NCBI RefSeq assembly: GCF_035084215.1
Contig: NC_090346.1
Span: 41,478,001-41,542,000, forward strand
Source: Heptranchias perlo
Taxonomy: Eukaryota
Length of the DNA stretch: 64,000 nt
Direction: 5' to 3'
Shown in pieces: positions 5,758 to 52,306 of this stretch. The notes under the pieces were generated by a model, which was not told where the DNA came from, searched no databases, and saw only the letters and a program-made list of their open reading frames with translations. Each line of letters starts with the position of its first letter. Within the stretch, counting starts at the first letter, position 1. A program made the translations under genes and the position numbers.

Positions 5758-6041
5758 GGGGGAAGACACACAAAGCACAGCAGAGAGAAATTAGGGAAAC
5801 TCTGTGGCAGTTGAAAAACATGGTTGCAGGATTTGGACTGCAATCTGCCCATTGACTACCTCAGATCTACATAATACCCATGCTTTGGACCTGAGTGATG
5901 ATTTTCATTGTGTTCTGGTTTGTAAAGGATTGGACCAAGAATAAGAATAGGTTTATCCATTGGTTATCTTAATGTGAAAGTTTGATGACTTGAGTTGTTC
6001 AACAACCGTGTTTATGAACAGGAGGTATAGAGGCCACTCAC

Positions 6042-6675
6042 CATGAAATGCATTGTTTGCTTGATGGTCTTGGGGCTGCTCCTGGACGTTCTCTTGTGTA
6101 GCATTCTGGCCCAGTGTGAAAAGCAAGACTGGCGGCCACTGGACTGGGCCCTGGTGGTCTGGCAACGGTTGCACTGGCACTTGCTTGGTGTGCCAAGTCA
6201 TCTGTTGGTGTAGCACTGGTTTCTTCTGCTGGCTGGGGACAGCATGTCTGCTGCTGGCTCTGCTCGTGCTGTCATCCCGGCTGGTGCCACTGGTACTGGG
6301 TTCACTGTCATTGCTGGTGCTGGGTCCCGCTGGGTCGTACTTGATGACGCCCATGATGTTCTCCTGGTGTAACGTTTGAGCAATTCTCTCATTCTGCATT
6401 GCCTCCCGTGCCAATTTGACCACTTTATCTTTGGTCCGGTGGCACATGTCGTACCACCTTTTCTTAATGTCACCTATGTCCCTAGTGCATTTGGATACAG
6501 CATTGACTTTCGCCAGTATTGAAAACCAGATCTTGTTTTTGGTACCTGGAGGCAATTTAGTATACCCTCTGCCAAAGAGCTTGTCCTGGTGCAGTGTCAC
6601 TTCACGGATCAGGATTTCTGTTTCGTCGTCGTTAAAATTCAGTTTGCGACGCCGGAAGGCCTCTTCCTTAGCCAT
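6042..6675 (-). CDS. Myb/SANT-like (trihelix) DNA-binding protein, Harbinger ORF2/NAIF1/MSANTD-like, coding exon 1
   Basis: MAKEEAFRRRKLNFNDDETEILIREVTLHQDKLFG...KNKIWFSILAKVNAVSKCTRDIGDIKKRWYDM is a typical Myb_DNA-bind_5-type pattern; strong donor CATG|GTGAGT at 6042/6041 (phase 1). Confidence 0.85.
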
Positions 6676-6930
6676 TTGTCGCAGCTGGCTCGCAACACTG
6701 GTCGAAAGGGCGACTTTTAAAATTAAAACGAAGCAGCCTCTCCGACAAAACGGGAGCTTAAAATGGCGACTAAGTTGCATTTGCACTCAGACTGGACGTC
6801 GCATTTCTGATGCGTTCTGGAAATACGAGAATTTGCGGCGTCACAAATTTGTCGCATCGCAAGTGGAGATGCGACAAAAATGTGCAAAAAAAATATATAT
6901 AAACTGACCAAATTTTCATAAATCTGGCCC
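6640..6930 (-). mobile_element. Putative Harbinger terminus: TIR-like GGGCCAGATTTATGAA plus subterminal TGCGAC/GTCGCA motif cluster
   Basis: Minus strand starts GGGCCAGATTTATGAAAATTTGG at 6930; repeated (T)GCGAC/GTCGC(A) motifs in both orientations just upstream of the Myb-like ATG. Confidence 0.55.
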
Positions 6931-9200: not shown

Positions 9201-9853
9201 GCTAACCAAGTCCAGCTACTACTTGAACTGATTCTGGCTACTGCTTACTGTGCACAGTTTTCAGGGGAATTCCATCCCACAGTATGCAGAGGCTGGAACC
9301 ACTTCCATTAGCAGCAGGACTCAGGTGCGAGCAGCACAGAAGGGAGAGGTGTCCAGTCTGAATTATGTGGGCTGGCCTGCCAAAATGTCGATGTTCATGT
9401 CAAATGCAGTCAGTTGGCAAGTATGGGGAAGAAAACCTTCAATATTCAATTAGTAAGCAAGTAGTGTATTCATAAGCTAGCTGCAGAATCAGTTCCAGCC
9501 ATCCTATATTCTGTTTATTGTGCTTGATGGAACTATAATTCTGCAAAGCTCCTTTCCCAGCAGTTAAAATTTGTGTTTAGAGTACGCGGGTGGGAGCTTT
9601 CGGCACTCTATAAACATTTTAATTAATTCCAGATTGGTTTAGAAGTGTCTAGGGACTTTTTAAATCTGGTTTGACATTGCACTGGAGCAGTAATCTATGT
9701 AGTGTCAGACCAAAGCTGTGTGAGACTGCCTCCACCAGGGGAGGTTGCACTGCTTCTTTCCAGAGTTGGTTGGGCCTCAGTTCAGGATTTATACTTTGCA
9801 GTGATGTTAATATTGCAAAATAAATACATCCTAAGATCAATATTAATATGTAG

Positions 9854-10058
9854 TATATAAAAACAGAAAATGCTGGAGAAGCTCAGCAAGTGAGGCAGCA
9901 TCTGCGGAGAAAGGAACAGAGTTAACGTTTCAGGTCAAAGACCTTTCGTCTGTTTCCTCTGTTTCTTTCTCCACAGATGCTGCCTGACTTGCTGAGCTTC
10001 TCCAGCATTTTCTGTTCTTATTTCAGATTTCCAGCATCCGCAATATTTTGCTTTTGAT
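9854..10058. mobile_element. Penelope-derived palindromic mini-element (family B) with 11-bp TSD
   Basis: About 60-bp inverted arms (AACAGAAAATGCTGGAGAAGCTCAGCAAGT... / ...ACTTGCTGAGCTTCTCCAGCATTTTCTGTT); TTAATATGTAG duplicated at 9843-9853 and 10059-10069; homologous to 45318-45408. Confidence 0.75.
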
Positions 10059-37631: not shown

Positions 37632-38290
37632 CTGTCTTGATTTTAATATTTGTATATCTGATATAAACCTGAAGAAAAAAGGTGCTGCTTAGTTTAATGA
37701 AACTCTTAAATATGTAGCATGTTACAGCGGTGCTGTCTCTTAGTCTCATCTTTAATTACAATCATGTGATGATCATGACACAAATTGATGATAATGTAAA
37801 TGTCCATGTAGGTAATAATTCAACATTTCAGAACACGCCACTATTTAGCACATTTATACATCGAATCATAGAAAGGTTACAACATGGAAGGAGGCCATTC
37901 GGCCAGTCGAGTCCGTGCCGGCTCTATGCAAGAGCAATCCAGCTAATTCCACTCCCCCACCCTATCCCCGTAGCCAGGCAAATTTTTTCCTTTCAAGCAC
38001 TTATACAGTTCCCTTTTGAAAGCCATGATTGAATCTGCCTCCGCTACCCCCTCTGGCAGTGCATTCCAGATCCTAACCACTCGCTGTATGAAAAACTTTT
38101 TCCTCATGTCACCTTTGGTTGTTTTGTCAATCACCTTAAATCTATGTCCTCTGGTTCTTGACTCTTCCACCAATGGGAACAGTTTCTCTCTATCTACTTT
38201 GTCTAGACCCTTCATGATTTTGAACACCTCTATCAACTCTCCTCTCAACCTCCTCTGTTCCAAGGAGAACAACCCCAGCTTCTCCAGTCT

Positions 38291-39082
38291 TTTTTTTTAT
38301 TCGTTCATGGGATGTGGGCCTCACTGGCAAGGCCAGCATTTATTGCCCATCCCTAATTGCCCTTGAGAAGGTGGTGGTGAGCCACCTTCTTGAACCGCTG
38401 CAGTCTGTATGGTGAAGGTTCTCCCACAGTGCTGTTAGGAAGGGAGTTCCAGGATTTTGACCCAGCGACGATGAAGGAATGGCGATATATTTCCAAGTCA
38501 GGATGGTGTGTGACTTGGAGGGGAATGTGCAGGTGGTGTTGTTCCCATGTGCCTACTGCCCTTGTCCTTCTAGGTGGTAGAGGTCGCGGGTTTGGGAGGT
38601 GCTGTCAAAGAAGCCTTGGCGAGTTGCTGCAGTGCATCCTGTGGATGGTGCACACTGCAGCCACAGTGCACTGGTGGTGAAGGGAGTGAATGTTTAGGGT
38701 GGTGGATGGGGTGCCAATCAAGTGGGCAGCTTTGTCCTGGATGGTGTTGAGCTTCTTGAGTGTTGTTGGAGCTGCACTCATCCAGGCAAGTGGAGAGTAT
38801 TCCATCACACTCCTGACTTGTGCCTTCTAAATGGTGGAAAGGCTTTGGGGAGTCAGGAGGTGAGTCACTCGCCGCAGAATACCCAGCCTCTGGCCTGCTC
38901 TTGTAGCCACAGTATTTATATGGCTGGTCCAGTTAAGTTTCTGATCAATGGTGACCCCCAGGATGTTGATGGTGGGGGATTCGGCAATGGTAATGCCATT
39001 GAATGTCAAGGGGAGGAGGTTAGACTCTCTCTTGTTGGAGATAGTCATTACCTGGCACTCGTCTGGTGTGAATGTTACTTAT
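38291..39082 (-). mobile_element. Second non-LTR retrotransposon family (L2/CR1 group), 3' part
   Basis: ILGVTIDQKLNWTSHI and MEYSPLAWMSA peptides; A-rich tail at 38291-38300. Confidence 0.8.
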
Positions 39083-39280
39083 GTCTATGCACGTAATTGA
39101 AGTCCCTCATCCCTGGAATCATTCTAGTAAATCTCTTCTGCACCCTCTGTAAGGCCTCCACATCTTTGCTAAAGTGCAGTGCCCAGAACTGGACACAATA
39201 TTTCAGTTGTGGCCGCACCAGTGTTTTATAAAGGTTCATCATGACTTCCTTGCTTTTGTACTCTATGCCTCTATTTATAA

Positions 39281-39487
39281 ATGATGTGGAGATGCCGGTG
39301 ATGGACTGGGGTGGACAAATGTAAGGAATCTTACAACACCAGGTTATAGTCCAACAATTTTATTTTAAAATCACAAGCTTTCGGAGATTATCCCCTTCGT
39401 CAGGTGACGAAGGGGATAATCTCCGAAAGCTTGTGATTTTAAAATAAAATTGTTGGACTATAACCTGGTGTTGTAAGATTCCTTACA
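39281..39487. mobile_element. Penelope-derived palindromic mini-element (family A) with 11-bp TSD
   Basis: Perfect 84-bp inverted arms 39319-39402 / 39405-39488; TCTATTTATAA duplicated; same terminus as the PLE at 43343. Confidence 0.9.
39371..39407 (-). ncRNA. Minimal type I hammerhead ribozyme-like motif
   Basis: UCAC-CUGACGA-A-GGGGA(UAA)UCUCC-GAAAGCUU-GUGA. Confidence 0.7.
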
Positions 39488-40199
39488 TCTATTTATAAAA
39501 CCCAGGATCCCGTATGCTTTTTTAACCACTTTCTCAACCTGCCCTGCCATCTTCAACGATTTGTGTACATATACCCCCAGATCTCTCTGTTCCTGTGCCC
39601 CATGGGGAAAGTGCTCCTCCCCTGGTGCTCAGCACTGCTTCTCTCGACTCTGCTCCCGCTTTTGTACAGATACCTGGAACTCCTGCCCTGGTGCTCAGCA
39701 CCGCTTCTCGGGACTAAATAATCAATTTATTTGTAGGTAATTACTTTTTAGTCTGTTTTGGGGCTTTTTCACTGCTTTTTAAATTTAGTACCTCCTTCCC
39801 CCTTTACACCTAATTCCTACTCTCACCAAATTCTCAAGTTCCCATTCAGTTCATGAACTACTCTCTTTTTGATGCACTCTGCGCTTTAGCAGGTAACCTT
39901 CTACTTTGTACACCCTTTTGAGAACAGCAGTTAAAACTGCTCAATCGGCTTATTAATTCTCGATTATCCACCAATTTCCCACTATCCACTGACGTGGTTA
40001 ATGCACAGTCGATATTGCAGGTCATCGCTATCAAATGTGGAAAAACCACAATAGTTCCAGTGTATTGTTCTTCATCTCCATATATAAAGGCCAATTCAGC
40101 GATCCCAGATAAAGAAGCTGCCAGGATCACTGCAGGAGACCTGAGCCAGCAGAGTGGTGAGCAAGCCTCATGGCACACAGCAGGATCAGCACATTACTA

Positions 40200-40290
40200 T
40201 AACAACAACAGTAACTTGCATTTATATAGCGCCTTTAACATAGTAAAACATCCCAAGGCGCTTCACAGGAGCGTAATCAAACGAAATTTG
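40200..40290 (-). mobile_element. L2 3' end fragment
   Basis: Near-identical to 23575-23668. Confidence 0.85.
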
Positions 40291-42611
40291 AGAATACACA
40301 CCTATGCAGTTTGAGCCTTACACAGGGAGTGAGGTAAAGGATGCCCACAGAATAATCCCTAAGTTAAAGGCATGTGGCCACGTAAGACAATTTAAAAAAA
40401 AAATTTGTTGTTGAAGTTTCTAAAGAAATGTGTTTCTCAAGTGTCAATTTTTCTTGTCTTTCTGCAAATTTTGTAACATAAAACATTTACATGGAGGATG
40501 ACGTGGCAGTGAAATCTGTTGTGGAATTTAATCCATTTACAATTGAAAGAAAGATGAAGTTCTGGAAAGTGACACATACATGTGCCACAGGGTTGATAAT
40601 AAAACTAGCTTGATGGGTTAGATGCCTAATGTTCACCAAAATGTCAGCCCAGCCTAAACAAAAAGGCTCATGTTTAATGGACTTCCTTTTCTGGATTTCT
40701 GAACCTGCCTCTGAAACTGCTCTCCCCCCAAATCAGTGACTGGAGAACACTATACTGGATCTAGCCATTATTTTATCGATAGAGCATTTTACTGAAAGAG
40801 CTTTTTGAAAACTCCATTTCCATTTCTGACCTAATTATTGTACAGACAAAAGGAAATGTTTTTAAAAAATAGATTCATAAACTTGCTTTCATCTTTGCAA
40901 CATCAGTTGGAGATTGTCCCATTGAAATAAATGAAAATCTGAAATTGGCAGCAAAAAGTGACATATTTTCTAACACAGCACCAGATATTTTATTATATTT
41001 TGATTGATTATCTAAAGAAAGGTTCAATGAGTATTCATTCCAAAATATTGTTAGAGATGAATGATGGGCAATACTTTAATCTGAAATTCTTAAACAGAAA
41101 TTGTAATGCTTCCTTCACTTTGACTGAAATTGCTAACATCAGTTTCATGCCACTTTTTGCATGTTTAATGTTTTACTCCAGTCCTAGATATATCGTATGT
41201 AACGTCTTGATCTATAAAGGAACACACCAAGCCCATTTCATTTACCAGATGGTGATAGTGGATAACTTTGCTTGTCACATGTAAAGTAAATTGTACTGAA
41301 TAGAATGATGTACATATTTACAAGTGGCTTGTAAGTCAGGTTTTGAAAGATAAACAATTTCAAGGTTGACGCAAATTACTTGGATGCCACGTGATGTTAG
41401 CACGTTAAAATCATGTGATCGGTTTCATATGCCCCATCTAAACATATGCAACTTTGAAACAGGATGGTTTTAACATCTGTTTTTCTACAACCCTTCCTCC
41501 CCAGAATCGAATGCCCAAACCACAGAGGAAAAATAGTTCTGTATTAATATATAAATAGTAGTAATCTCTGTCTATTTTTTAAATTGCTTACTGTTAGTAA
41601 AGATGCAATAACTGCTATTATCAGATATATTTTATAAATGAATATATAGATTTTTCAGCTCCCATTGTGAGAACTGTGGTAAGGATATAGTGTTGATACC
41701 AAGTCAGAGCAGTCATAACAAGTTATTGTGATCTAGCATATACATCAATTTTATTGTGGATGATACATTTTGTATCAAATTGTAAGTCCTTATACAGATT
41801 GAAATGGTGTTTAATAATACTATACAGTGTAAGGTGGGATGGCAGGTCATCAATCTAAAACAATGAGCAGTGCATGCTCCCTATGTTGGGACACTAAGGT
41901 TCCTTCACTGCAGTGGGAGATGTGATGCACGAAGAGTATTTTCACTAGTAGACTTAACTGGGCTGGTAAAAAATGAACTTTGCAGTCATAAGTAAGTTTA
42001 ATTTATTCCACTGGTTGAAATATTTCTCATGTTCCATACCCCACTGTACAATATTCTGTGTATCACAAAATAATAAGGTCTCTGTTTCAAAATGACCCTA
42101 ATCAATCCCCTCCCCCCCCAAGTCTCTCTCTTCTATTGTACTATTGGCAGTTACATTATAACTGTTTGATTATTACCTCACACACTTGCTATTTAACTTA
42201 ACTTCTCCTTAACTGTTTGCAAGCCCTGCATGGTGGGCCTTGTCCCTACAACTTGATTCCTCAATTTAAAAAAATTGTGAAAATATGGCAAGTATATGTA
42301 GCGATGACAATCTCATGAATCATAATCTGAATTATCTGCTAAATGTACATATTCAGGAACTGATAATATTAAAAAATTGAATCTTTATAATGCGGTGGGA
42401 AGACGGGTGCACTGTGATCTGTATTTTTTCTATTCTACGAAACTGAAGAATTATCTCAGTGTATTTGCAGCCTTACCTGTAATATTTGTCATAATTATTG
42501 AATTATTCCATCTTTTCAATAAAATGTTTATGTATATGGTCATTTGATTCTATCTTAATCCACTGCTAAAAGTATAACCGCTGAAACAATATCAGTGCAA
42601 TTACTGTTACA

Positions 42612-42764
42612 ATGATGTGGAGATGCCGGTGATGGACTGGGGTGGACAAATGTAAGGAATCTTACAACACCAGGTTATAGTCCAACCGTTTTATTTGAAA
42701 ATCACAAGCTTTCGGAGGCTTTCTCCTTCGTCAGGTGAGTCCCATTACATTACATTCCTTACAT
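42612..42764 (-). mobile_element. Penelope family A terminal module (solo) with collapsed inverted arm
   Basis: Matches 43343-43470; remnant ATTCCTTACAT of the inverted arm; TSD-like TTACTGTTACAA / TTACTATTACAA. Confidence 0.85.
42702..42738 (-). ncRNA. Minimal hammerhead ribozyme-like motif
   Basis: UCAC-CUGACGA-A-GGAG(AAAGC)CUCC-GAAAGCUU-GUGA. Confidence 0.7.
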
Positions 42765-42869
42765 TACTATTACAACACTGCAACGTTTCACTCATTGCTC
42801 CTTTGCCTCTTATTTTTATTAGTAATTGACATTTTTAGATATAAAACTTTCTTTTTCAAAATGTTTTCC

Positions 42870-43250
42870 CCCTCCCCCTCCTGACTCTTGCTGGGATACA
42901 GTTCCACTGACGTCAGCAGCTGTCTCCATACCTTGCCTGACCTCATTTGTTATAGGTGAGTCAAGACTGCCAGTGCTAGCAGACTATTTGGATCATTAAG
43001 GAGATCACTATTGAGTTCAATCTTCTCACCTAATTGCATTTTCCAACAGAGATCACTAGATAGTGATTAGAGGGGCACCTTCATTTGATTTTTGTTCTCC
43101 CTCTTAGTAGCCCAGAGCCAACTGTAGCTGTCCAACTGCCATCCTGGCTAAGATCAACTAACTAAGCACAAGTCAAGATCTGAACATTGAGTCTTCTGGC
43201 TGAGTTCCCCACTCGGGATGCCTTTATTTACTGGGCCATCAGTGAACAAA
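42870..43250 (-). mobile_element. Old SINE family copy (unnamed)
   Basis: GATCACTAGATAG...GATCAACTAACTAAGCACA, the reverse of the 27745 and 57870 copies. Confidence 0.5.
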
Positions 43251-43342
43251 CTGGTATTTTTTTAATGTTATTTTCTTATTATTTTGAATCTAATCACATA
43301 AAGAGAATCATGATTCTGAGATCTTCCTACACTTATTTTACC

Positions 43343-45305
43343 ATGATGTGGAGATGCCGGTGATGGACTGGGGTGGACAAATGTAAGGAGTCGCACAACA
43401 CCAGGTTATAGTCCAACAGCTTTATTTGAAATCACAAGCTTTCGGAGCTTTGCTCCTTCGTCAGGTGAGTGAAGAGTTGCATAAAGGCACAACATATATA
43501 GTCAGAGAACAATGCCTGGTGATTACAAATAATCTTTCTAACTGCCCTTTATCACACCTCGGCAGAGAGATAATCACAGCAATCAATGGTGTTCAGACAG
43601 GTTAGTCAGGGAAACATTACATCCAAGAATACTGAGGTGGGGTCACAAGGGGTCAAATCAGAAAGACAGAGAGAGAGAGAGAGAGACCAGAAAGACAGAG
43701 AGAGAGAGAGATGACCAGTTGTATTAAAAACAGATAACTTTTTTTTGCTGGAAATCGCAGCAGGTCCGGCCATATTTGTGTATGGAGAACAAGCCAACTA
43801 CGACTTGAGTATGGATGACTCTACGTCAGGTGGCTATCAATTTCTGCTCGACGATTTTGCATTGTCGTGTGTCTCGAAGGCCGCCTTGGAGAACGCTTAT
43901 CCGAAGATCGGAGGCTGAATGTCCTTGACTGCTGAAGTGTTCCCCGACTGGGAGGGAACCCTCCTGTCTGGCGATTGTTGCGCGGTGTCCGTTCATCCGT
44001 TGTCGCAGTGTCTGCATGGTCTCGCCGATGTACCATGCTCCGGGGCATCCTTTCCTGCAACGTATGAGGTAGACAACGTTGGCCGAGTCACAGGAGTATA
44101 AACCATGTACTTGGTGGGTGGTGTCCTCTCGTGTGATGGTGGTATCTGTGTCGATGATCTGGCATGTCTTGCAGAGGTTGCCGTGGCAGGGTTGTGTGGT
44201 GTCGTGGACGCTGTTCTCCTGAAAGCTGGGTAATTTGCTGCGAACGATGGTCTGTTTGAGGTTAGGTGGCTGTTTGAAGGCGAGTAGTGGAGGCGTGGGG
44301 ATGGCCTTAGCGAGGTGTTCGTGGTCATCGATGACATGTTGAAGGCTGCGAAGAACATGGTGTAGTTTCTCCGCTCCGGGGAAGTACTGGACGACAAAGG
44401 GTACTCTGTTGGTTGTGTCCCGTGTTTGTCTTCTGAGGAGGTCTATGCGATTTTTCGCTGCGGCCTGTTGGAACTGTCGATCGACGAGTCGAGCGTCATA
44501 TCCCGTTCTTACGAGGGCGTCTTTCAGCGTCTGTAGGTGTCCATCGCGTTCCTCCTCATCTGAGCAGATCCTGTGTATTCGCAGGGCCTGTCCATAGGGG
44601 ATGGCCTCTTTGACGTGGTTAGGGTGGAAGCTGGAGAAGTGGAGCATCGTGAGGTTGTCCGTGGGCTTGCGGTAGAGTGAGGTGCTGAGGTGCCCGTCTT
44701 TGATGGAGATTCGTGTGTCCAAGAATGAAACCGATTCTGAGGAGTAGTCCATGATGAGTTTGATGGTGGGATGGAACTTGTTGATGTTATCGTGTAGTCT
44801 CTTCAGTGATTCTTCGCCGTGGGTCCATAGGAAGAAAATGTCGTCGATGTATCTGGTGTATAGCGTTGGTTGGAGGTCCTGTGCAGTGAAGAAGTCGTGC
44901 TCGAACTTGTGCATGAAAATGTTGGCGTATTGGGGTGCGAATTTGGTCCCCACGGCTGTTCCGTGTGTTTGGGTAAAGAACTGCTTGTTGAAGGTGAAGA
45001 CATTGTGATCCAGGATGACGCGGATGAGTTGTAGGATGGCGTCTGGAGATTGGCTGTTGTTGGTGTTGAGTACTGAGGCTGTCGCAGTGATGCCGTCATC
45101 GTGGGGATACTGGTGTAGAGTGCTGAGACGTCCATCGTGGTGAGAAGTGTTCCTGGTTCAACTGGTCCGTGGGTGCTGAGTTTTTGTAGGAAGTCTGTAG
45201 TGTCGCGACAGAAGCTGGGGGTTCCCTGTACGATGGGTTTCAGGATGCCCTCGATGTATCTGGATACAATGTCTTCACCTTCGACAACCAGTTCTTTACC
45301 CAAAC
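43343..45305 (-). mobile_element. Penelope-like retroelement (Neptune-like), 5'-truncated: RT plus C-terminal GIY-YIG
   Basis: MDVSALYTSIP, MGTKFAPQYANIFM, RYIDDIFF, LYRKPT, Cys linker CHGNLCKTC, VVYLIRC..WYIGET and VGEHF...H; one frameshift near 45103; 3' UTR with (GA)n and hammerhead motif. Confidence 0.93.
43432..43468 (-). ncRNA. Minimal hammerhead ribozyme-like motif in the PLE 3' terminal repeat
   Basis: UCAC-CUGACGA-A-GGAGC(AAA)GCUCC-GAAAGCUU-GUGA, followed by AAUAAA. Confidence 0.72.
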
Positions 45306-45317
45306 AGCAGCAATTTT

Positions 45318-45408
45318 CTGACGAAAGGTCTTCGACCTGAAACGTTCACTCTGTTTCTTTCTCCACAGATGCTGCCTCACTTGCTGAGCTTCTCCAGCAT
45401 TTTCTGTT
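45318..45408 (+). mobile_element. Penelope family B terminal module with hammerhead-like core
   Basis: CTGACGA-A-AGGTC(TTC)GACCT-GAAACGTT; remainder near-identical to 9958-10016. Confidence 0.7.
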
Positions 45409-45464
45409 AACATAAACGAGGTATTGCTTGGCTAAAAATGGTCTCAGATCAGAAATTGTAGTAT

Positions 45465-45690
45465 ATTACATAGAATTTACAGCACAGAAACAGGCCACTT
45501 GCCCGTGTTTATGCTCTACAGGAGCCTCCTCCCACCCTGCTTCATCTAACATTAATCAGCATGTCCTTCCATTCCTTTCTCCCTCATGTACTTATCTAGC
45601 TTCCCCTTATATGCATCTATGCCATTTGCCTCAACTACTCCATGTGGTAGTGAGTTCCACATTCTAACCGTTCTCTGGGTAAAGAAGTTA
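45465..45690 (-). mobile_element. CR1 3' fragment (another subfamily)
   Basis: NFFTQRTVRMWNSLP...KGKLDKYM peptide. Confidence 0.8.
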
Positions 45691-45899
45691 TGCCCAAAAT
45701 GTTCTTCACGTCTGAATGGCGATGTGAAAATCTCAACCTCGTTTGACAAAAAAAAAAATCATAGTTATTGAGCTACGAGTAGTAGGAATGTGAGGGCAGT
45801 GGATGACACTTTACCAGTCAATTCATGCCTTACACTTTTAATGCTCAATTTAAATTATATCTGCACACATTGAAATTCTGTTAAGTGTTGAAAAGTGAG

Positions 45900-46880
45900 A
45901 AAATACATTTACATCGCCGTGCATGATTGAAATCGGTGTAAACTCTTAGCTTCCACGTAATATTGAGCGTCATTTTATGATCGTGTTCGTACGATTAACA
46001 TCGATCGTGAATTACAATGGGAGACAGTGAGAGCCTGTTTTTGTTCAGTGTGAGCTCGGTTACCTGGTCGGATTGCAGACGGCGCGGGACCCTTTTGTGG
46101 GTTTAGGGCATTTTGGAAATGTCTTGAATTTTGATTTTTTTGTGTGTGTTTGTGGGGAGGGGAGGAGGGGGGGGGGGTTGATTGCACACCACACACAAAA
46201 AAAAACTCGACGATAAGACGGAGCGAGGCATGAAAAGCGATGAGGCAGGTTGCAATCCAAGCTGCTGTGTTTGGAGAGCATTTGTGGTGTTTGGATAATG
46301 AGAGATTGGGGTTTTTGGTTTGCTCTCCCAGGATGTTTATTGGTCTGAAACACTGGGCTCCATATCTTGAGGCGTCTTGCTCCCATCGCTGCTCAATCTA
46401 ACCAAAGACCCAGAGTCGCGGATCTGCGGCCGCAAATAATGCATCCGTCGGTCGGGTCTTTGTGCTGGGGGCCGATCGCTGTGAAGAGGCCCCTGACAGA
46501 GTGGGAGTTTTACTACTCCGAGGCCGGCATAAGGCCAATTGCGACCCCGCAGCCGCCAGTGCCCGGCAGCCAGGCGCCTCTGGAAGGGAGCGGAGAGGAA
46601 GGGACCTCAGCTGTCCGAAGCTGCGTCGCCAGCGGAGCCCCGCAGCGGGCGTATCCAGCAAACCCCGGCCCCAGGAAGAGCAGCAGCGGCAGCGGCGGCA
46701 GCCCGGAGGAGATCCAGGCGGCCAAATGGGGATCGGAGATACTCCAGCGGGAAAGAGAGGCTGCGAAAGAGAGTGAGATGCTGGAGAGAGACGATCGGAA
46801 GGCAGCCGCCGTCGCCCTTAAATATATTCGCCCGGACCAGTGCTTGAAGTACATGAGAGTGTGTGTGGACCCAGGTGAGG
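45900..46880. promoter_or_regulatory. CpG island over the EME2 promoter and first exon
   Basis: High GC and CpG content spanning the 5' end of EME2. Confidence 0.7.
46439..46874 (+). CDS. EME2: Crossover junction endonuclease subunit EME2, exon 1 (start codon tentative)
   Basis: KRPLTEWEFYYSEA and RKAAAVALKYIRPDQCLKYMRVCVDP resemble the EME2 N-terminus (RRPPTWEISDSDA; RPEQVLKRLAVCVD); donor CAG|GTGAGG. Confidence 0.8.
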
Positions 46881-47279
46881 GAGGCTCAAACAACAACAAA
46901 AAAAAAAGAAACACAAGGCAGCAACCTTTAAAGCCTGTGCTTTGGATTGTGTTGATTAATCATTATAAACCTGTGGCGGTCTTTGCATTAAGTTTAACGC
47001 TGTGTGATTCGCCCCATAAGGTGTGTGAAATCGTACAGTATGTCGATTCACCCCTCACAGTCAGGCACTGATCAGCGTGAGGTGACATTGTCGCTGGTAT
47101 TTCGTTTAAATTTGTAAGAAATCGATTGAAATGGAAAACAAACAAAAAAAAAAGTTGCAGATTATTCTTGTAACTGATTTTAATAGGCAAGACTTCTTTG
47201 ATAAAGCACAATTAGTTTACCTCAAATCTGAATTCTGTTTGCATCTTAATTTTGAGCTGTTCTATTGCTCCCTCCCCAG

Positions 47280-47428
47280 CTATTCTGGAAGATACAGGTG
47301 GATATGTACTGCTTGATGTTTTGAACTCGCTAGAATCAGAATATAGTGTTGAACCTCAGTCAGTCCCTTCCACTATTACATGGAGAAGAGAATTTCCCCA
47401 AGTCATTTTGGGTGACCAGTCTGATGCG
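47280..47428 (+). CDS. EME2: EME2 exon 2
   Basis: AILEDTGGYVLLDVL...EPQSVPSTITWRR; phase 1 to 0. Confidence 0.9.
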
Positions 47429-48640
47429 GTGAGTTGATACTGTGCATGCCAGGACACCTATCTTTCAAACAGTGTGGTAGCTTTTAAATGCCTACTGTTA
47501 CAGTTATACTATCACTTTCACCACACTGCACAGTAGTGCTGGTATAACTTTAGAGACAGGTCTTGATCAGACTCCAGAATACAACATTGCCAGGCCCCTT
47601 GAGGAGGCTGTCTCTCACTGCTTGGGCTTTTCACTGTATGAAGTATGTGGTGTCAAATCATGTTTTAGAAATGCCCCGGGAGCAGTTGGATGTCCTGGAC
47701 ACTTTATAAACTGAGCAGAGTTTTAAAAAAATTGAGACTGCAAATGCCTCGTGCCTGTGCTCTCAAAACATTTAATATTTGCCAGATGACAGCAGAGCTC
47801 TGTGTTAAGTACAAGCAGGCAACTGCAGAATGCTCACATAACAGCTGAAGTGTGGATTTGCATCCTGTAGTATAAATGGGTGCTGTCACTTACTGCAGCT
47901 ATTGGTCTTAGATTGGTAGTGCAGTATAACCACAGCCTTAAACAGTCACTGTCATTATAAAGAGTGTTCAGTAAATCTTTTCCTGTGTTGTGAAACATGT
48001 TGGGAACTACTGCATTGCAAAATAAAAATCATGTTCAAAATTACACAGGACTGTCTTGGCTACTGCACCTCCCCAGTGACTCCCCAATTTCTTATTCTTG
48101 CACAGATTTACACATCTTACATCTAAATATGCAGCTTTCCATGTACAAGGGACACAGGAAAATAATGAAATCTAGTGAAATAGGAGACACAATTGCTGCA
48201 TAAAAAAGTAACATTCTTCCAAGTTGTGACAAAAGGATATCGAGGCACTAGAATGACAAAGACATTTGTAATGTTACAGGATACATGAATAGTAACCAGA
48301 AAAGGAGAGCTAGTTCACTATCATCTGCAATATATAGTGCTCTGCAGTAGAGACTGGAACATCCAAAAAAATTGCACTAATTTAAAAGAAAAATAGTTCC
48401 TGATAAGTTGACAGTATGTTCAAAGACCTTACAGGATAACATATCCAACCAAATAATCTATCTTTGCCAAATAAAAATGTTAGGATATTTAGGTCCTTTT
48501 TTAGCATCTCTAATCTGGTGTCCTGTATGTCTGAAGGTGGCTAGTCTTTAAAATGAATCCCCAAACTAACAGTATATTCATTATGACAAAACAAAACATA
48601 AGTGAAGTTGTTCTTTCCACTTGCATGTTTTACTGTCATT

Positions 48641-48848
48641 AGGTGTCAGCCTGGGCTCAGTGGTAGCACTCTCCCCTCTGATTTAGATGGTTGTGGGTTC
48701 AAGTCCCACTCCAGAGATTTCAGCACATAATCTAGGCTGTCACTTCAATGCAGTACTGAGGGAATGCTGTCAGAGGGGTCATCTTTTGGATAAGATGTTA
48801 AACTAAGGTGCCGTTGCCCTCTTAGCTGGATGTAAAAGATCCTATATG
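48641..48848 (+). mobile_element. Deu-domain SINE, 5' half (continues at 50466-50482 and 50810-51040)
   Basis: GGCTCAGTGG A-box and GGGTTCAAGTCCC B-box; interrupted by CR1. Confidence 0.85.
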
Positions 48849-50465
48849 TCATAAGAAATGGGAGCAGGAGTAGGCCACGAGGCCCCTCGAGCCTGCTCCG
48901 CCATTCAATAAGATCATGGCTAATCTTCGACCTCAACTCCACTTTCCTGCCCGATCCCCATATCCCTTAATTCCCTTAGAGTTCAAGAATCTATCGATCT
49001 ATCTCAGCCTTGAACATATTCAATGACTGAGCATCCACAGTCCTCTGGGGTAGAGAATTCCAAAGATTCACAACCCTCTGTGTGAAGAAATTCCTCCTCA
49101 TCTCAGTCTTAAATGGCCGACCCCTTATCTTGCACCTATGCCCCCTAGTTCTAGACTCTCCAGCCGGGGGAAAACAACCTCTCAGCATCTACCCAGTCAA
49201 GCCCCCTCAGAATCTTATGTGTTTCAATGAGATCACCTCTCATTCATCTAAACTCCAGAGAGTATAGGCCCATTCTACTCAATCTCTCCTCATGGGACAA
49301 CTCTCTTATCCCAGGAATCAATCTAGTGAACCTTCGTTGCACCGCCTCTAAGGCGAGTATATTCTTCCTTAGATAAGGAGACCAAAACTGTACACAGTAC
49401 TCCAGGTGAGGTCTCACCAGAGCCCTGTATAATTGTAGTAAGTCTTCCTTACTCTTGTACTCCAACCCCCTTGCAAAAAAGGCCAACATGCCATTTGCCT
49501 TCCTAATTGCTTGCTGTACCTGCATGCTAACTTTTTGTGCTTCTTATCCAGAGAGATTTAGGTGTCCTCATACACCAACATTTAATAGTTTCTCACCATT
49601 TAAAAAATATTTTGTTTTTCTATTCTTCCTACCAAATTTCCCCACATTATACTCCATCTGCCACCTTCTTGCCCACTCACTTAACCTGTCTATAACCCTT
49701 TACAGACTGTGTCCTCCTCACAGCTTACTTTCCCACCTAGCTTTGTATAGTCAGCAAACTTGGATACATTACACTCAGTCCCTTCAATCTAAGTCATTAA
49801 TATAGATTGTAAATAGCTGAGGCCCAGGCATCGTTCCTTGCCACACCCCACTAGTTACAGCCTGCCAACCTCAAAATGACTGTTTATCCTTACTCTCTTT
49901 TCTGTCCGTTAACAAATCTTCTATCCATGCTAACATGTTACCCCCCAACCCTATAAGCCCTTGTCTTGCATAACAACCTTTTATGTGGCACCTTATCGAA
50001 TGCCTTTTGAAAATCCAAATATACTACATCCACTGGTTCCTCTTTATCTACCCTGCTAGTTATATCCTCAAAAAACTCCAATAAACTTTGTCAAACATGA
50101 TTTCCCTTTCACAAAACCATGTTGAATCTGCCTAATCATATTATGATTTTCTAAGTGCCCTGTTACCATTTCCTCAATAATGGATTCCAGCATTTTCCGG
50201 ACGACTGATGTCAGGCTAACTGGCTTGTAGTTCCCAGTTTTCTCTCTCCCTCCTTTCTTGAATAGCAGGGTTACATTTGCTACCTTCCAATCCGTTAGGA
50301 CCGTTCTAGAATTTAGGAAGATCACAACCAATGCATCCACTATCTCTGCAGCCACCTCTTTCAGAACCCTCGTATGTAGACCATCAGGTCCAGGGGATTT
50401 ATCGGCTTTTAGTCCCATTAGTTTCTCAAGTACGTTTTCTCTACTGATAATTACTTTAAGTTCCT
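48849..50465 (-). mobile_element. CR1 LINE fragment inserted into the SINE
   Basis: KSPGPDG and RPHLEYCVQFWSP peptides; CR1 3' UTR at 48849-48945. Confidence 0.95.
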
Positions 50466-50482
50466 CACTATTCGAAGAAGAA

Positions 50483-50809
50483 TTGTAAACAATTTTACAA
50501 CACCAAGTTATAGTCCAGCAATTTTATTTTAAATTCACAAGCTTTCGGAGACTTCCTCCTTCCTCAGGTAAATGTTCAGGAGCTCCTTGAAGCCTACGCA
50601 TTTATACATATAGAACAATACATGGTGTTTACAGACTGCCCCTGCAACTGCCCGTTGCCAAGGCAATCACCGTGTTCAGACAGAGAGGTGTCACCTGCAG
50701 AACCCCCGAATACACATTCAACAAAAAAACAAACAGGGAAAAAAAACAGAGAAAAAAAACAGAGAGAGGCAGAAACATCCGGAAGGCAGAGAAAGCCAGC
50801 AAATGACCC
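50483..50809 (-). mobile_element. Penelope-related 3' fragment with 13-bp flanking direct repeat
   Basis: TTACAACACCAAGTTATAGTCCA is shared with the family A modules; ATTCGAAGAAGAA at 50470-50482 and 50810-50822. Confidence 0.75.
50533..50573 (-). ncRNA. Minimal hammerhead ribozyme-like motif (variant)
   Basis: AUUUAC-CUGAGGA-A-GGAGG(AAG)UCUCC-GAAAGCUU-GUGAAU. Confidence 0.7.
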
Positions 50810-51040
50810 ATTCGAAGAAGAAGAGCTGGGAAGTTGTCCTGGCCAACATTTATCCCTCAACCAACACCACTAAAATAGATTATCTGGTAATTTATCTCAC
50901 TACTGTGTAGGAACATTGCTGTGTGCAAATTAGCAGCCACATTTGCTTACCTTATAGTGACTGCACTTAAAAAAAAGTTCAATGGCTGCAAAGTGCTTTG
51001 GGATGATAGGTGCAACCTAAATGCAAGTTCTTCCTTTCTT
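50810..51040 (+). mobile_element. Deu-domain SINE, 3' half
   Basis: CCTGGCCAACATTTATCCCTCAACC...TGCTGTGTGCAAATTAGCAGCC...AATGCAAGTTCTTCCTTTCTT. Confidence 0.8.
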
Positions 51041-51479
51041 ATTGTTTATCATGTTCAGATAGGACATTCTCTGCTCACCTGTATGGGTGATTTGGAGGTG
51101 ATCATCTTGCTAAGGATAATAGGAACACCCATTGTTTTATTGTTAAGTCTCTTTCTTCTTCCTCCCTAACATGCAACAGTTTCATTTCTCTCTAAAAAGT
51201 GAGAACGTTACTGCAAAGCTCCACAGGAGCTGCTGATCTGGACTGAACAAAAGGGTCATTTAAAATCCGTCTGCATTTTGCTAACAGAGCAAAGGGAACA
51301 TTTGCTGCCCTAGTGATATCCCAGTTTTATTTTCTAGTTTTTGTGAGGAGGAAGTCCATCGCAGGCCCCCTTTTAATAAAGAAAGGTCCAAATAATTATT
51401 TTGAATGCCAAATTATAACAGCCATTGTTTTCTATAACATGAGCCAGAGAAACAGTTTAATTTTTATAACCGGTTCTTT

Positions 51480-51800
51480 TCCCATTGAGTGCTCCCACCT
51501 CCCTCTTGCTAGTGTTCTGTTCCATGGGCTCGACCAGCTCTCTGGGCTAGTTAACCCTAGAGGGTATCACGGCCAAATGTGTCTTCACTGACATCCACAC
51601 AGAAGCACTTTCCAGCAGTGGTCATTGGATAGCTATCAGGACCAAGAATCCTGCTGATTTATTATTTTCTTCAGCATTCCAAGGACATTGGTGCAAATTT
51701 TAAGCCCCCAACTGCTGTCCTTGTAGAGATCAACTAAATTAGCATAAACCAGGATCAAACCTATGACCTTCGGGCCTATATGGTTTAGTGGTACACCAGG
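51480..51800 (-). mobile_element. Old SINE family copy (unnamed)
   Basis: TTCCAGCAGTGGTCATTGGATAGC...GAGATCAACTAA motifs. Confidence 0.5.
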
Positions 51801-52306
51801 CACAGACTTTATCTATGTTTTTGAGGAAATTAACATGTCTTCTAAATATACAACGCAATTCTGAATGTTTCTTGGTTTAATTATTGAGCCAACTTTGTGG
51901 AAGATTTCCCTGTATACTACTGTATTTAAATAATAATGGATATCTGGCAGTACTGTACCAGGATCATGACAATAGGCAGGTTTGATTGAAAAATGGATGC
52001 CTTTTGAAGTCCTTCATCTGGGCTGTCTTTAATTCACTGTTACAGTGCCGTTCCAGTGAATTATTACTATTTAACCACTGATTGGACTGCTACCTTGAAC
52101 TGGTCTTTTTTTCAGCTTTCAGAAGTTGCTGTCCTGGTTTGTGCAGTTTGGAGTTTGAAGTTTGAAGAATACTCCACTGTAGCTGACAAAGGCTTTAGGA
52201 TATTTCATGAGGGTCTGAAATAATGAGACAATCATCAAGGCATATTTTCAAACAGAGATTGAATTTGAATTGCTGCTTATTTGGTAACAGTAATTTGTGC
52301 TTTCAG

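Follow-up and report, generated by a model that had tools for sequence, protein, structure and literature searches.

What do hammerhead ribozymes contribute to the Penelope-like elements (PLEs) that carry them? The question is raised by a 64,000-nucleotide stretch of the Heptranchias perlo genome (contig NC_090346.1, positions 41,478,001 to 41,542,000; here called the window), in which an earlier note, made from the letters of the DNA, had described four hammerhead-like motifs on the minus strand. These motifs are minimal type I hammerheads, located in the pseudo-long terminal repeat (pLTR) of one young, endonuclease-bearing (EN+) PLE family. In this family, which has reached a very high copy number, we consider it probable that the many short modules carrying the ribozyme arose as run-off cDNAs of the 5' leader and are dead ends, their RNA templates having likely been uncut.

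A scan of the window for CUGANGA..GAAA placed position C3 of the four motifs at 39403, 42734, 43464, and 50567. The coordinates 39371, 42702, 43432, and 50533, by which the copies are named here, mark the 3' end of stem I in each case. A strict descriptor, requiring the core, paired stems I and II, and GAAA-NN-UH, gave 4 matches in the window, compared with none in 200 of 200 Markov-1 resamples. The motifs have the core CUGANGA and GAAA..UH of minimal type I hammerheads, as well as the extra nucleotide that separates position 9 from 10.1 and the palindrome at 15.2-16.2, and AAUAAA lies ∼10 nt past the predicted cut in all four. Pattern scan and descriptor thus confirm the minus-strand motifs and their downstream AAUAAA as originally written, and the cut predicted after AAGCUU follows from consensus numbering. 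The four copies belong to one 128-nt repeat family. Compensatory changes had also been claimed for stem II; these stand for the loop-closing fifth pair, the one place where both sides change (A-U, C-G, and G-U), while the fifth pair of 42702 is an A.C mismatch and the remaining stem differences are wobble changes. Private decay as the origin of the G-U pair in 50533 was ruled out, as it belongs to a recurrent haplotype (14/224). No Rfam hammerhead matched the window at E values up to 5; the Rfam scan returned only hairpin-driven miRNA matches below the gathering score. The motif itself, the extra A, and the palindromic stem III are already published (PMC4209133).

Across the host genome (3.25 Gb), the repeats of which would fit a cartilaginous fish, the family motif has 77,612 matches, compared with 0 for a reversed control. 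The exact tail 27-mer occurs in 49,473 copies and the exact junction from tail to open reading frame (ORF) in 840. Because only 228 motif matches have another base at position 17, the family is taken to be young. An older relative with another base at this position was considered and rejected, nearly all of the 100 matches listed appearing to be point mutants of the same subfamilies. Two loci (L071 and L113) contain intact 902-aa ORFs in tandem units of 3.07 to 3.09 kb; the ATG lies at the tail end, and motif, tail, and ATG form one unit. The protein includes a reverse transcriptase (RT) domain (Pfam RVT_1, E = 3e-10) and the motifs YIDD, GTAMG, a CX4CXXC linker, and VVYLIRC..YIGET. No Pfam match to GIY-YIG was found in it at E values up to 0.1, and the endonuclease call is based on the motifs and on Atlas clusters in which 13 to 18% of members have GIY-YIG; a PDB sequence search gave nothing significant (best E = 0.86). 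With the endonuclease called in this way, the family has the single ORF of EN+ PLEs, RT followed by GIY-YIG, together with pLTR tandems, an inverted 5' arm, and a 30- to 40-bp tail. A CX2-5CXXC linker between RT and endonuclease, as found here, defines Neptune and occurs also in Nematis (PMC8557442), and by linker and motifs the protein would fit either group.

Selection on the ribozyme was assessed with an alignment of 21 natural haplotypes: 18 of the 25 seen in at least two loci, plus three added, including that of L181. The seven left out of the 25 comprise three mutants at U17, a copy derived from a junction, and three more. In this alignment, the core varies at N7 only, apart from one U4 change, and 91.8% of alignment cells are paired, with three pairs changing on both sides. 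Slid controls pair at 23 to 49%, and none of 500 shuffles reached the observed score. Double changes also distinguish a 2,249-copy subfamily, in which A-U becomes G-C in stem II and U-A becomes C-G in stem I. Helices I and II are therefore paired as in a hammerhead, with G10.1-C11.1 and some covariation; monomer fold z-scores are weak (-0.7 to -2.4). On this comparative evidence, the structure is under selection across subfamilies, with a genuine but shallow signal, which supports the initial assignment of the motifs to PLE pLTR hammerheads under structural selection. The features of such minimal hammerheads, including the low in vitro activity of their dimers, have been described (PMC4209133). 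As a separate observation, the antisense of stem I and core reads CAG/GTGAGT, a consensus 5' splice site, in some subfamilies; this may be a by-product of the ribozyme sequence.

If self-cleavage produced the ends of reverse transcription templates, insertions should be interrupted at the predicted cut. In the genome as a whole, 66,642 copies continue across that point. The base directly before the cut (U17) differs in 372 copies, versus 329 at a neighboring control base; true junctions, several of which use microhomology, made up 16 of 30 inspected cases at U17 and 11 of 30 at the control base. Breaks at the cut thus amount to ∼0.3 to 0.4% of copies, near the per-base background of 0.2%. Because these breaks are so close to background, and because the downstream ribozyme, too, is spanned in long copies, cleaved RNA was hardly ever the source of an insertion. 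In PAc, the Poseidon element of Anolis carolinensis (Frangieh et al. 2024, PMC11167929), unprocessed RNA is likewise the dominant template, and ribozyme mutants have no effect on insertion in vitro, a result with which the near-absence of cleaved templates agrees. The same two observations, uncut templates and PAc mutants without effect, could be explained by a motif that has lost cleavage and is retained for protein binding or folding. Such a reading would also suit the hammerhead triplet here, CUU, which is a weak one. We regard such a loss of catalysis as unlikely: the catalytic core stays constant, in contrast to the variable N7 and loops, and the PAc hammerhead cleaves once protein is added (PMC11167929).

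Two samples were used to locate the ends of insertions. The first, from the single 2,249-copy subfamily, comprises 83 pieces from 72 loci, taken from the first matches. The second comprises 94 insertions recovered among 100 tail matches listed and is tail-anchored only; three of these insertions had no usable piece and one had no usable 5' end. In the single-subfamily sample, 47 of 83 3' ends fall at +83 to +91 and 31 of 83 at +118 to +128 from C3, so that insertions have two alternative end sites, one on each side of a tail of ∼36 nt. In the tail-selected sample, 34 of 48 inverted arms begin 34 to 41 nt before the tail end, and target site duplications (TSDs) of at least 10 bp accompany 50 of 91 insertions, 34 of those being 12 to 13 bp. 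PAc also has two internal priming sites flanking its tail, at a near-identical distance from stem II (111 to 118 nt, versus ∼114 to 116 nt for the distal end site here), with both strands extended (PMC11167929). The two end sites match these PAc priming sites. Just 5' of the proximal site lies a five-pair hairpin (window 39317-39336, minus strand, and homologues) in which two pairs covary: among 233 copies, the fifth pair is A-U in 132, G-C in 54, and G-U in 5 (commonest haplotypes), and the fourth is C-G in 3. A tail pseudoknot was also considered and dropped, as the haplotypes barely vary there. Inversion junctions at four loci (L005, L006, L014, and L021) contain short GTGA-type stutters and filler, which suggests repeated copying of a template end.

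The 5' ends are likewise nonrandom. Of 90 direct pieces in the tail-selected sample, 42 end at -22 to +7, 15 at +8 to +90, 3 at -23 to -39, 5 at -40 to -129, and 25 beyond; the rate per base is 0.026 inside -22 to +7, versus 0.002 on either side. Short pieces of the single subfamily number 53; of these, 25 have their 5' end at -12/-13, ∼28 nt below the subfamily's TATA-like box (-40), and 4 reach beyond -14, and none of the 83 pieces ends between -30 and -146. Across subfamilies, this limit shifts with the distance of the TATA box (Spearman 0.29, n = 147, p = 3e-4), the median being 4, 10, and 15 nt for boxes at -38 or nearer (n = 43), -39 to -41 (n = 97), and -44 or farther (n = 4), respectively. 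A Mann-Whitney comparison gave p = 6e-7 without the -44/-45 and -39 to -42 classes and the -68 end, and p = 2e-5 with -44/-45. By eye, the rare head-to-tail junctions have similar subfamily-specific starts. The simplest reading of this 5' wall, we infer, is the transcription start. Alternatively, the wall might be a reverse transcription stall, or cDNA joining, at the front edge of the hammerhead or nearby palindromes: many ends lie at 0 to -6, and junctions use TCA/TGA symmetry (module A) and the palindromes GAGCTC and AGATCT. We judge this improbable, since the sharpest mode (-12/-13) lies 6 to 8 nt outside stem I, occurs also in noninverted inserts, and shifts outwards where a subfamily has its TATA box farther away, and since the 3' side of the ribozyme, which the enzyme reaches first, has few ends.

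With a transcription start as the limit, the following course of events is proposed. Transcription would begin ∼28 to 30 nt below the pLTR TATA box, 7 to 17 nt upstream of C3 depending on the subfamily. The element protein would nick both DNA strands and prime reverse transcription internally at the two tail edges, steps established for PAc (PMC11167929). Priming on the 5' leader would lead to run-off at the RNA start after at most 135 nt, yielding short direct and inverted arms, while priming on a read-through downstream pLTR would yield long copies. An inverted arm stands beside the direct arm in 40 of 60 short inserts, and in most of these the same sequence is repeated. This overlap between the arms makes it likely that copying used two RNAs or passed twice over a single one; in the former case, the second RNA would also provide a partner with which a double hammerhead could form. 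Since AAUAAA lies upstream of both priming sites, RNAs ended there would keep only their 5' priming sites, which could explain the dominance of short copies. The ribozyme would then likely cut slowly, with help from protein or a dimer, and separately from the copying of templates; its cut might, for example, remove the capped first ∼40 nt and so limit translatable RNA.

A more detailed version of this proposal is advanced tentatively, at somewhat less than even chances. In it, the short modules would correspond to the strong-stop DNA of retroviruses, made by a dimeric ribonucleoprotein with two uncut RNAs that primes at both tail edges and copies to the capped start. The ribozyme would be a protein-gated switch at the first 45 nt of the mRNA, and the covarying hairpin would mark the priming site. 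If so, tens of thousands of insertions map a transcription start, and a catalytically conserved hammerhead does not make the template 5' end.

Several points weigh against run-off of uncut RNA from under a selected ribozyme. With regard to the structure, the fifth pair is unpaired in 5 of 21 haplotypes for stem II and in 10 of 21 for stem I. The covariation is shallow, and the haplotypes are related, which the shuffle control ignores. The AGCU duplex is weak (-2.5 kcal/mol), and ViennaRNA cofolding gives a stem II swap rather than a double hammerhead. With regard to the 5' wall, tracking of the TATA box is modest: the first TATA rule gave a Spearman coefficient of 0.17 (n = 190, p = 0.018), and from the 232 pieces 63 ambiguous and 18 uncalled ones were dropped, followed by 4 ending beyond -35, leaving a far-TATA class of only 4 pieces. 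Several ends overrun the expected start (-16 to -43), and palindromic microhomologies near C3 also favor junctions there. In older subfamilies, short ends may reflect an exact parent that was not sampled. Pieces of one insertion are nonindependent, and sampling was mostly confined to the beginning of contig C1. Finally, scarce cut-site junctions also fit active cleavage, as cut RNA may go untranslated or uncopied.

Whether the short modules are by-products or a family of their own was addressed by comparing haplotypes in 343 sampled pieces, 232 of them short. Of the short pieces, 90 have an exact counterpart among long copies, and 173 have a counterpart with no more than 2 differences. The short modules of the window differ from long copies at 1 to 2 positions, and copy D (50533) is identical to another long copy. 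The five commonest haplotypes all occur in both classes; one haplotype was sampled as 5 short and 0 long copies. No lineage apart from the autonomous copies, as expected of a family resembling short interspersed elements (SINEs), emerged from these pieces. Non-LTR retrozymes have a ribozyme in consecutive tandem units, an arrangement absent from the window copies and the family at large and present only at rare loci such as L325 and L326. Head-to-tail junctions number 41, versus 49,473 tails, and no head-to-tail module tandem was found in window 38000-52000. At one exceptional locus (L325:857-4683; G000:C2, ∼21.27 Mb), ten near-identical 404-bp units stand in tandem, and each combines a TATA box and hammerhead with a tail and the first ∼130 nt or so of the ORF. 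This array is a candidate nascent retrozyme-like array derived from the present family, and it fits the structural part of the retrozyme definition as given in a preprint (bioRxiv 10.64898/2026.07.22.740005). Two further loci (L326 and L327) contain short head-to-tail module arrays with 143-bp (4 motifs) and 137-bp (2 motifs) spacing.

The earlier note had taken the ORF-less modules with TSDs for a mobilized, non-autonomous ribozyme-bearing family. TSDs are present for three window copies (10 to 12 bp); no TSD was found for the 43432 copy, which is also not ORF-less, as its motif lies at the 3' end of a truncated element, 1.9 kb long, whose RT/endonuclease ORF is broken. A retrozyme- or SINE-like family that is transcribed, self-cleaved, and remobilized by the PLE enzyme would account for the TSDs of at least 10 bp in 43 of 60 short inserts, the recurring module boundaries, and the rare tandem derivatives just described, and retrozymes have been proposed to derive from pLTRs (bioRxiv 10.64898/2026.07.22.740005), yet we find it very improbable, as short and long copies share haplotypes, head-to-tail junctions are rare, module ends lie below the TATA box rather than at the cut site, and the short class has neither the TATA box nor the ORF-start sequence required of a PAc template (PMC11167929). 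TSDs show insertion by the autonomous enzyme, not a separate module lineage, and the short modules are best read as by-products.

Among known systems, the minimal hammerheads of metazoan PLEs (Cervera and de la Peña 2014, PMC4209133) number ∼9,000 in Xenopus and ∼4,000 in the coelacanth, fewer than the matches found here, and the present motif differs from those described there in combining an AGCU palindrome with a CUU triplet. Single motifs were called probable truncated PLEs in the cited portion of that work, which gives no boundary analysis. Relative to PAc (PMC11167929), the ATG is at the tail end rather than at stem II, the linker is of the Neptune/Nematis type, and the evidence is genomic and adds the 5' wall below the TATA box. 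Other EN+ PLEs (Craig et al. 2021, PMC8557442; Adineta PLEs, PMC3846280) have in common with this family 5' truncation, partial tandems, an adjacent inverted copy, a 30- to 40-bp tail, TATA and initiator (Inr)-like pLTR motifs, and TSDs. Solo pLTRs without TSDs are ascribed in the cited portions of those reports to recombination or deletion, whereas most short copies here have TSDs and a nonrandom 5' end. Non-LTR retrozymes (PMC7229834; bioRxiv 10.64898/2026.07.22.740005) are similarly hammerhead bearing, ORF-less, and pLTR related; they are tandem repeats with a ribozyme per unit, in contrast to the dispersed singles or head-to-head pairs of the window. The role of hammerheads in EN+ PLEs is stated to be unclear (PMC8557442). 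A young family with intact ORFs and ∼77,000 copies provides a genome-wide count against self-cleavage as the maker of template ends. It also offers in vivo support for two-site priming, so far shown in vitro for one element, and allows the start sites, the priming sites, and the site of cutting to be predicted exactly. In mainly open-access literature, supplements excluded, we found no published account of start-bounded 5' ends or of chondrichthyan PLE hammerheads; this hammerhead family may be listed in the supplementary material of PMC4209133 or the retrozyme preprint.

Table 1. Features of the four hammerhead-bearing copies and adjoining sequence (positions in the window)
Feature	Position	Strand	Remarks
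Module A, direct arm	39281..39407	-	Short module; hammerhead, AAUAAA, second hairpin, tail
Module A, hammerhead	39407-39371	-	Predicted cut 39375/39374
Module A, inverted arm	39405..39488	+	5'-clipped fifth hammerhead copy, overlooked in the earlier note
Module A, TSD	39271..39280		Second copy 39489-39498
Module B	42613..42763	-	Short module
Module B, hammerhead	42738-42702	-	Predicted cut 42706/42705
Module B, TSD	42601..42612		Second copy 42764-42775; one mismatch
Truncated element, 3' untranslated region (UTR)/pLTR	43342..43720	-	With tail
Truncated element, TATA-like box	∼43500-43494	-	
Truncated element, hammerhead	43468-43432	-	Predicted cut 43436/43435
Degenerate hammerhead-like motif	43798..43833	-	Core changes; pattern at 43829-43798; overlooked in the earlier note
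Broken RT/GIY-YIG ORF remnant	43831..45267	-	
Short inverted ORF fragment	45260..45306	+	At 5' truncation point
Module of second, older repeat family	45318..45408	+	Unrelated minimal hammerhead (45318-45346), overlooked in the earlier note
Copy D, truncated	50481..50809	-	329 bp; part of 3' UTR
Copy D, TATA box	∼50606-50600	-	
Copy D, hammerhead	50573-50533	-	Predicted cut 50539/50538
Copy D, TSD	50470..50480		Second copy 50810-50820

The individual copies (Table 1) illustrate these arrangements. In module A, the inverted arm extends from the tail boundary to one base inside the core, with loss of C3, and the two arms make up a perfect inverted repeat of 84 bp with the 39371 motif at its apex. 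Because the insert folds into one long hairpin (-144.9 kcal/mol), an RNA covering all of it would not form this hammerhead. Module B consists of an ∼11-nt inverted stub from the tail boundary, filler, a direct arm from -6, and the tail, while copy D stops at the tail boundary and has no tail. The ORF remnant of the truncated element starts from aa 393 of the 902-aa family protein, has a frameshift near 45104 and a deleted C-terminal end, and is 95% identical in DNA to intact copies. The degenerate hammerhead-like motif lies in a 3' UTR common to the window and another locus (L029, there just past the stop codon) and is therefore carried by that subfamily.

Two other minimal hammerheads were observed. 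The older family at window 45318-45408 (plus strand), also present at 9845-10021, has an ACGU palindrome and a GUU triplet; a broader pattern gave 8,839 matches, versus 191 for the reversed control, with some loci near distant PLE ORF fragments. The third, with a GUC triplet, recurs in eight repeats spaced 8 to 22 kb apart (L152 to L159; G000:C1:0.93-1.02 Mb) within large repeats that are nearly identical (L152 and L155 agree at 98.6% over 3 kb), and no PLE ORF match was found within 1.5 kb of it. Elsewhere in the window, 45750-47250 resembles a CpG island (GC up to 0.61, CpG observed/expected 0.75 to 1.02), possibly a host gene start adjoining the truncated element. Finally, an open frame on the minus strand at 5953-6786 encodes a Myb/SANT-like DNA-binding domain (E = 3e-17), which may come from a Harbinger-type transposon.

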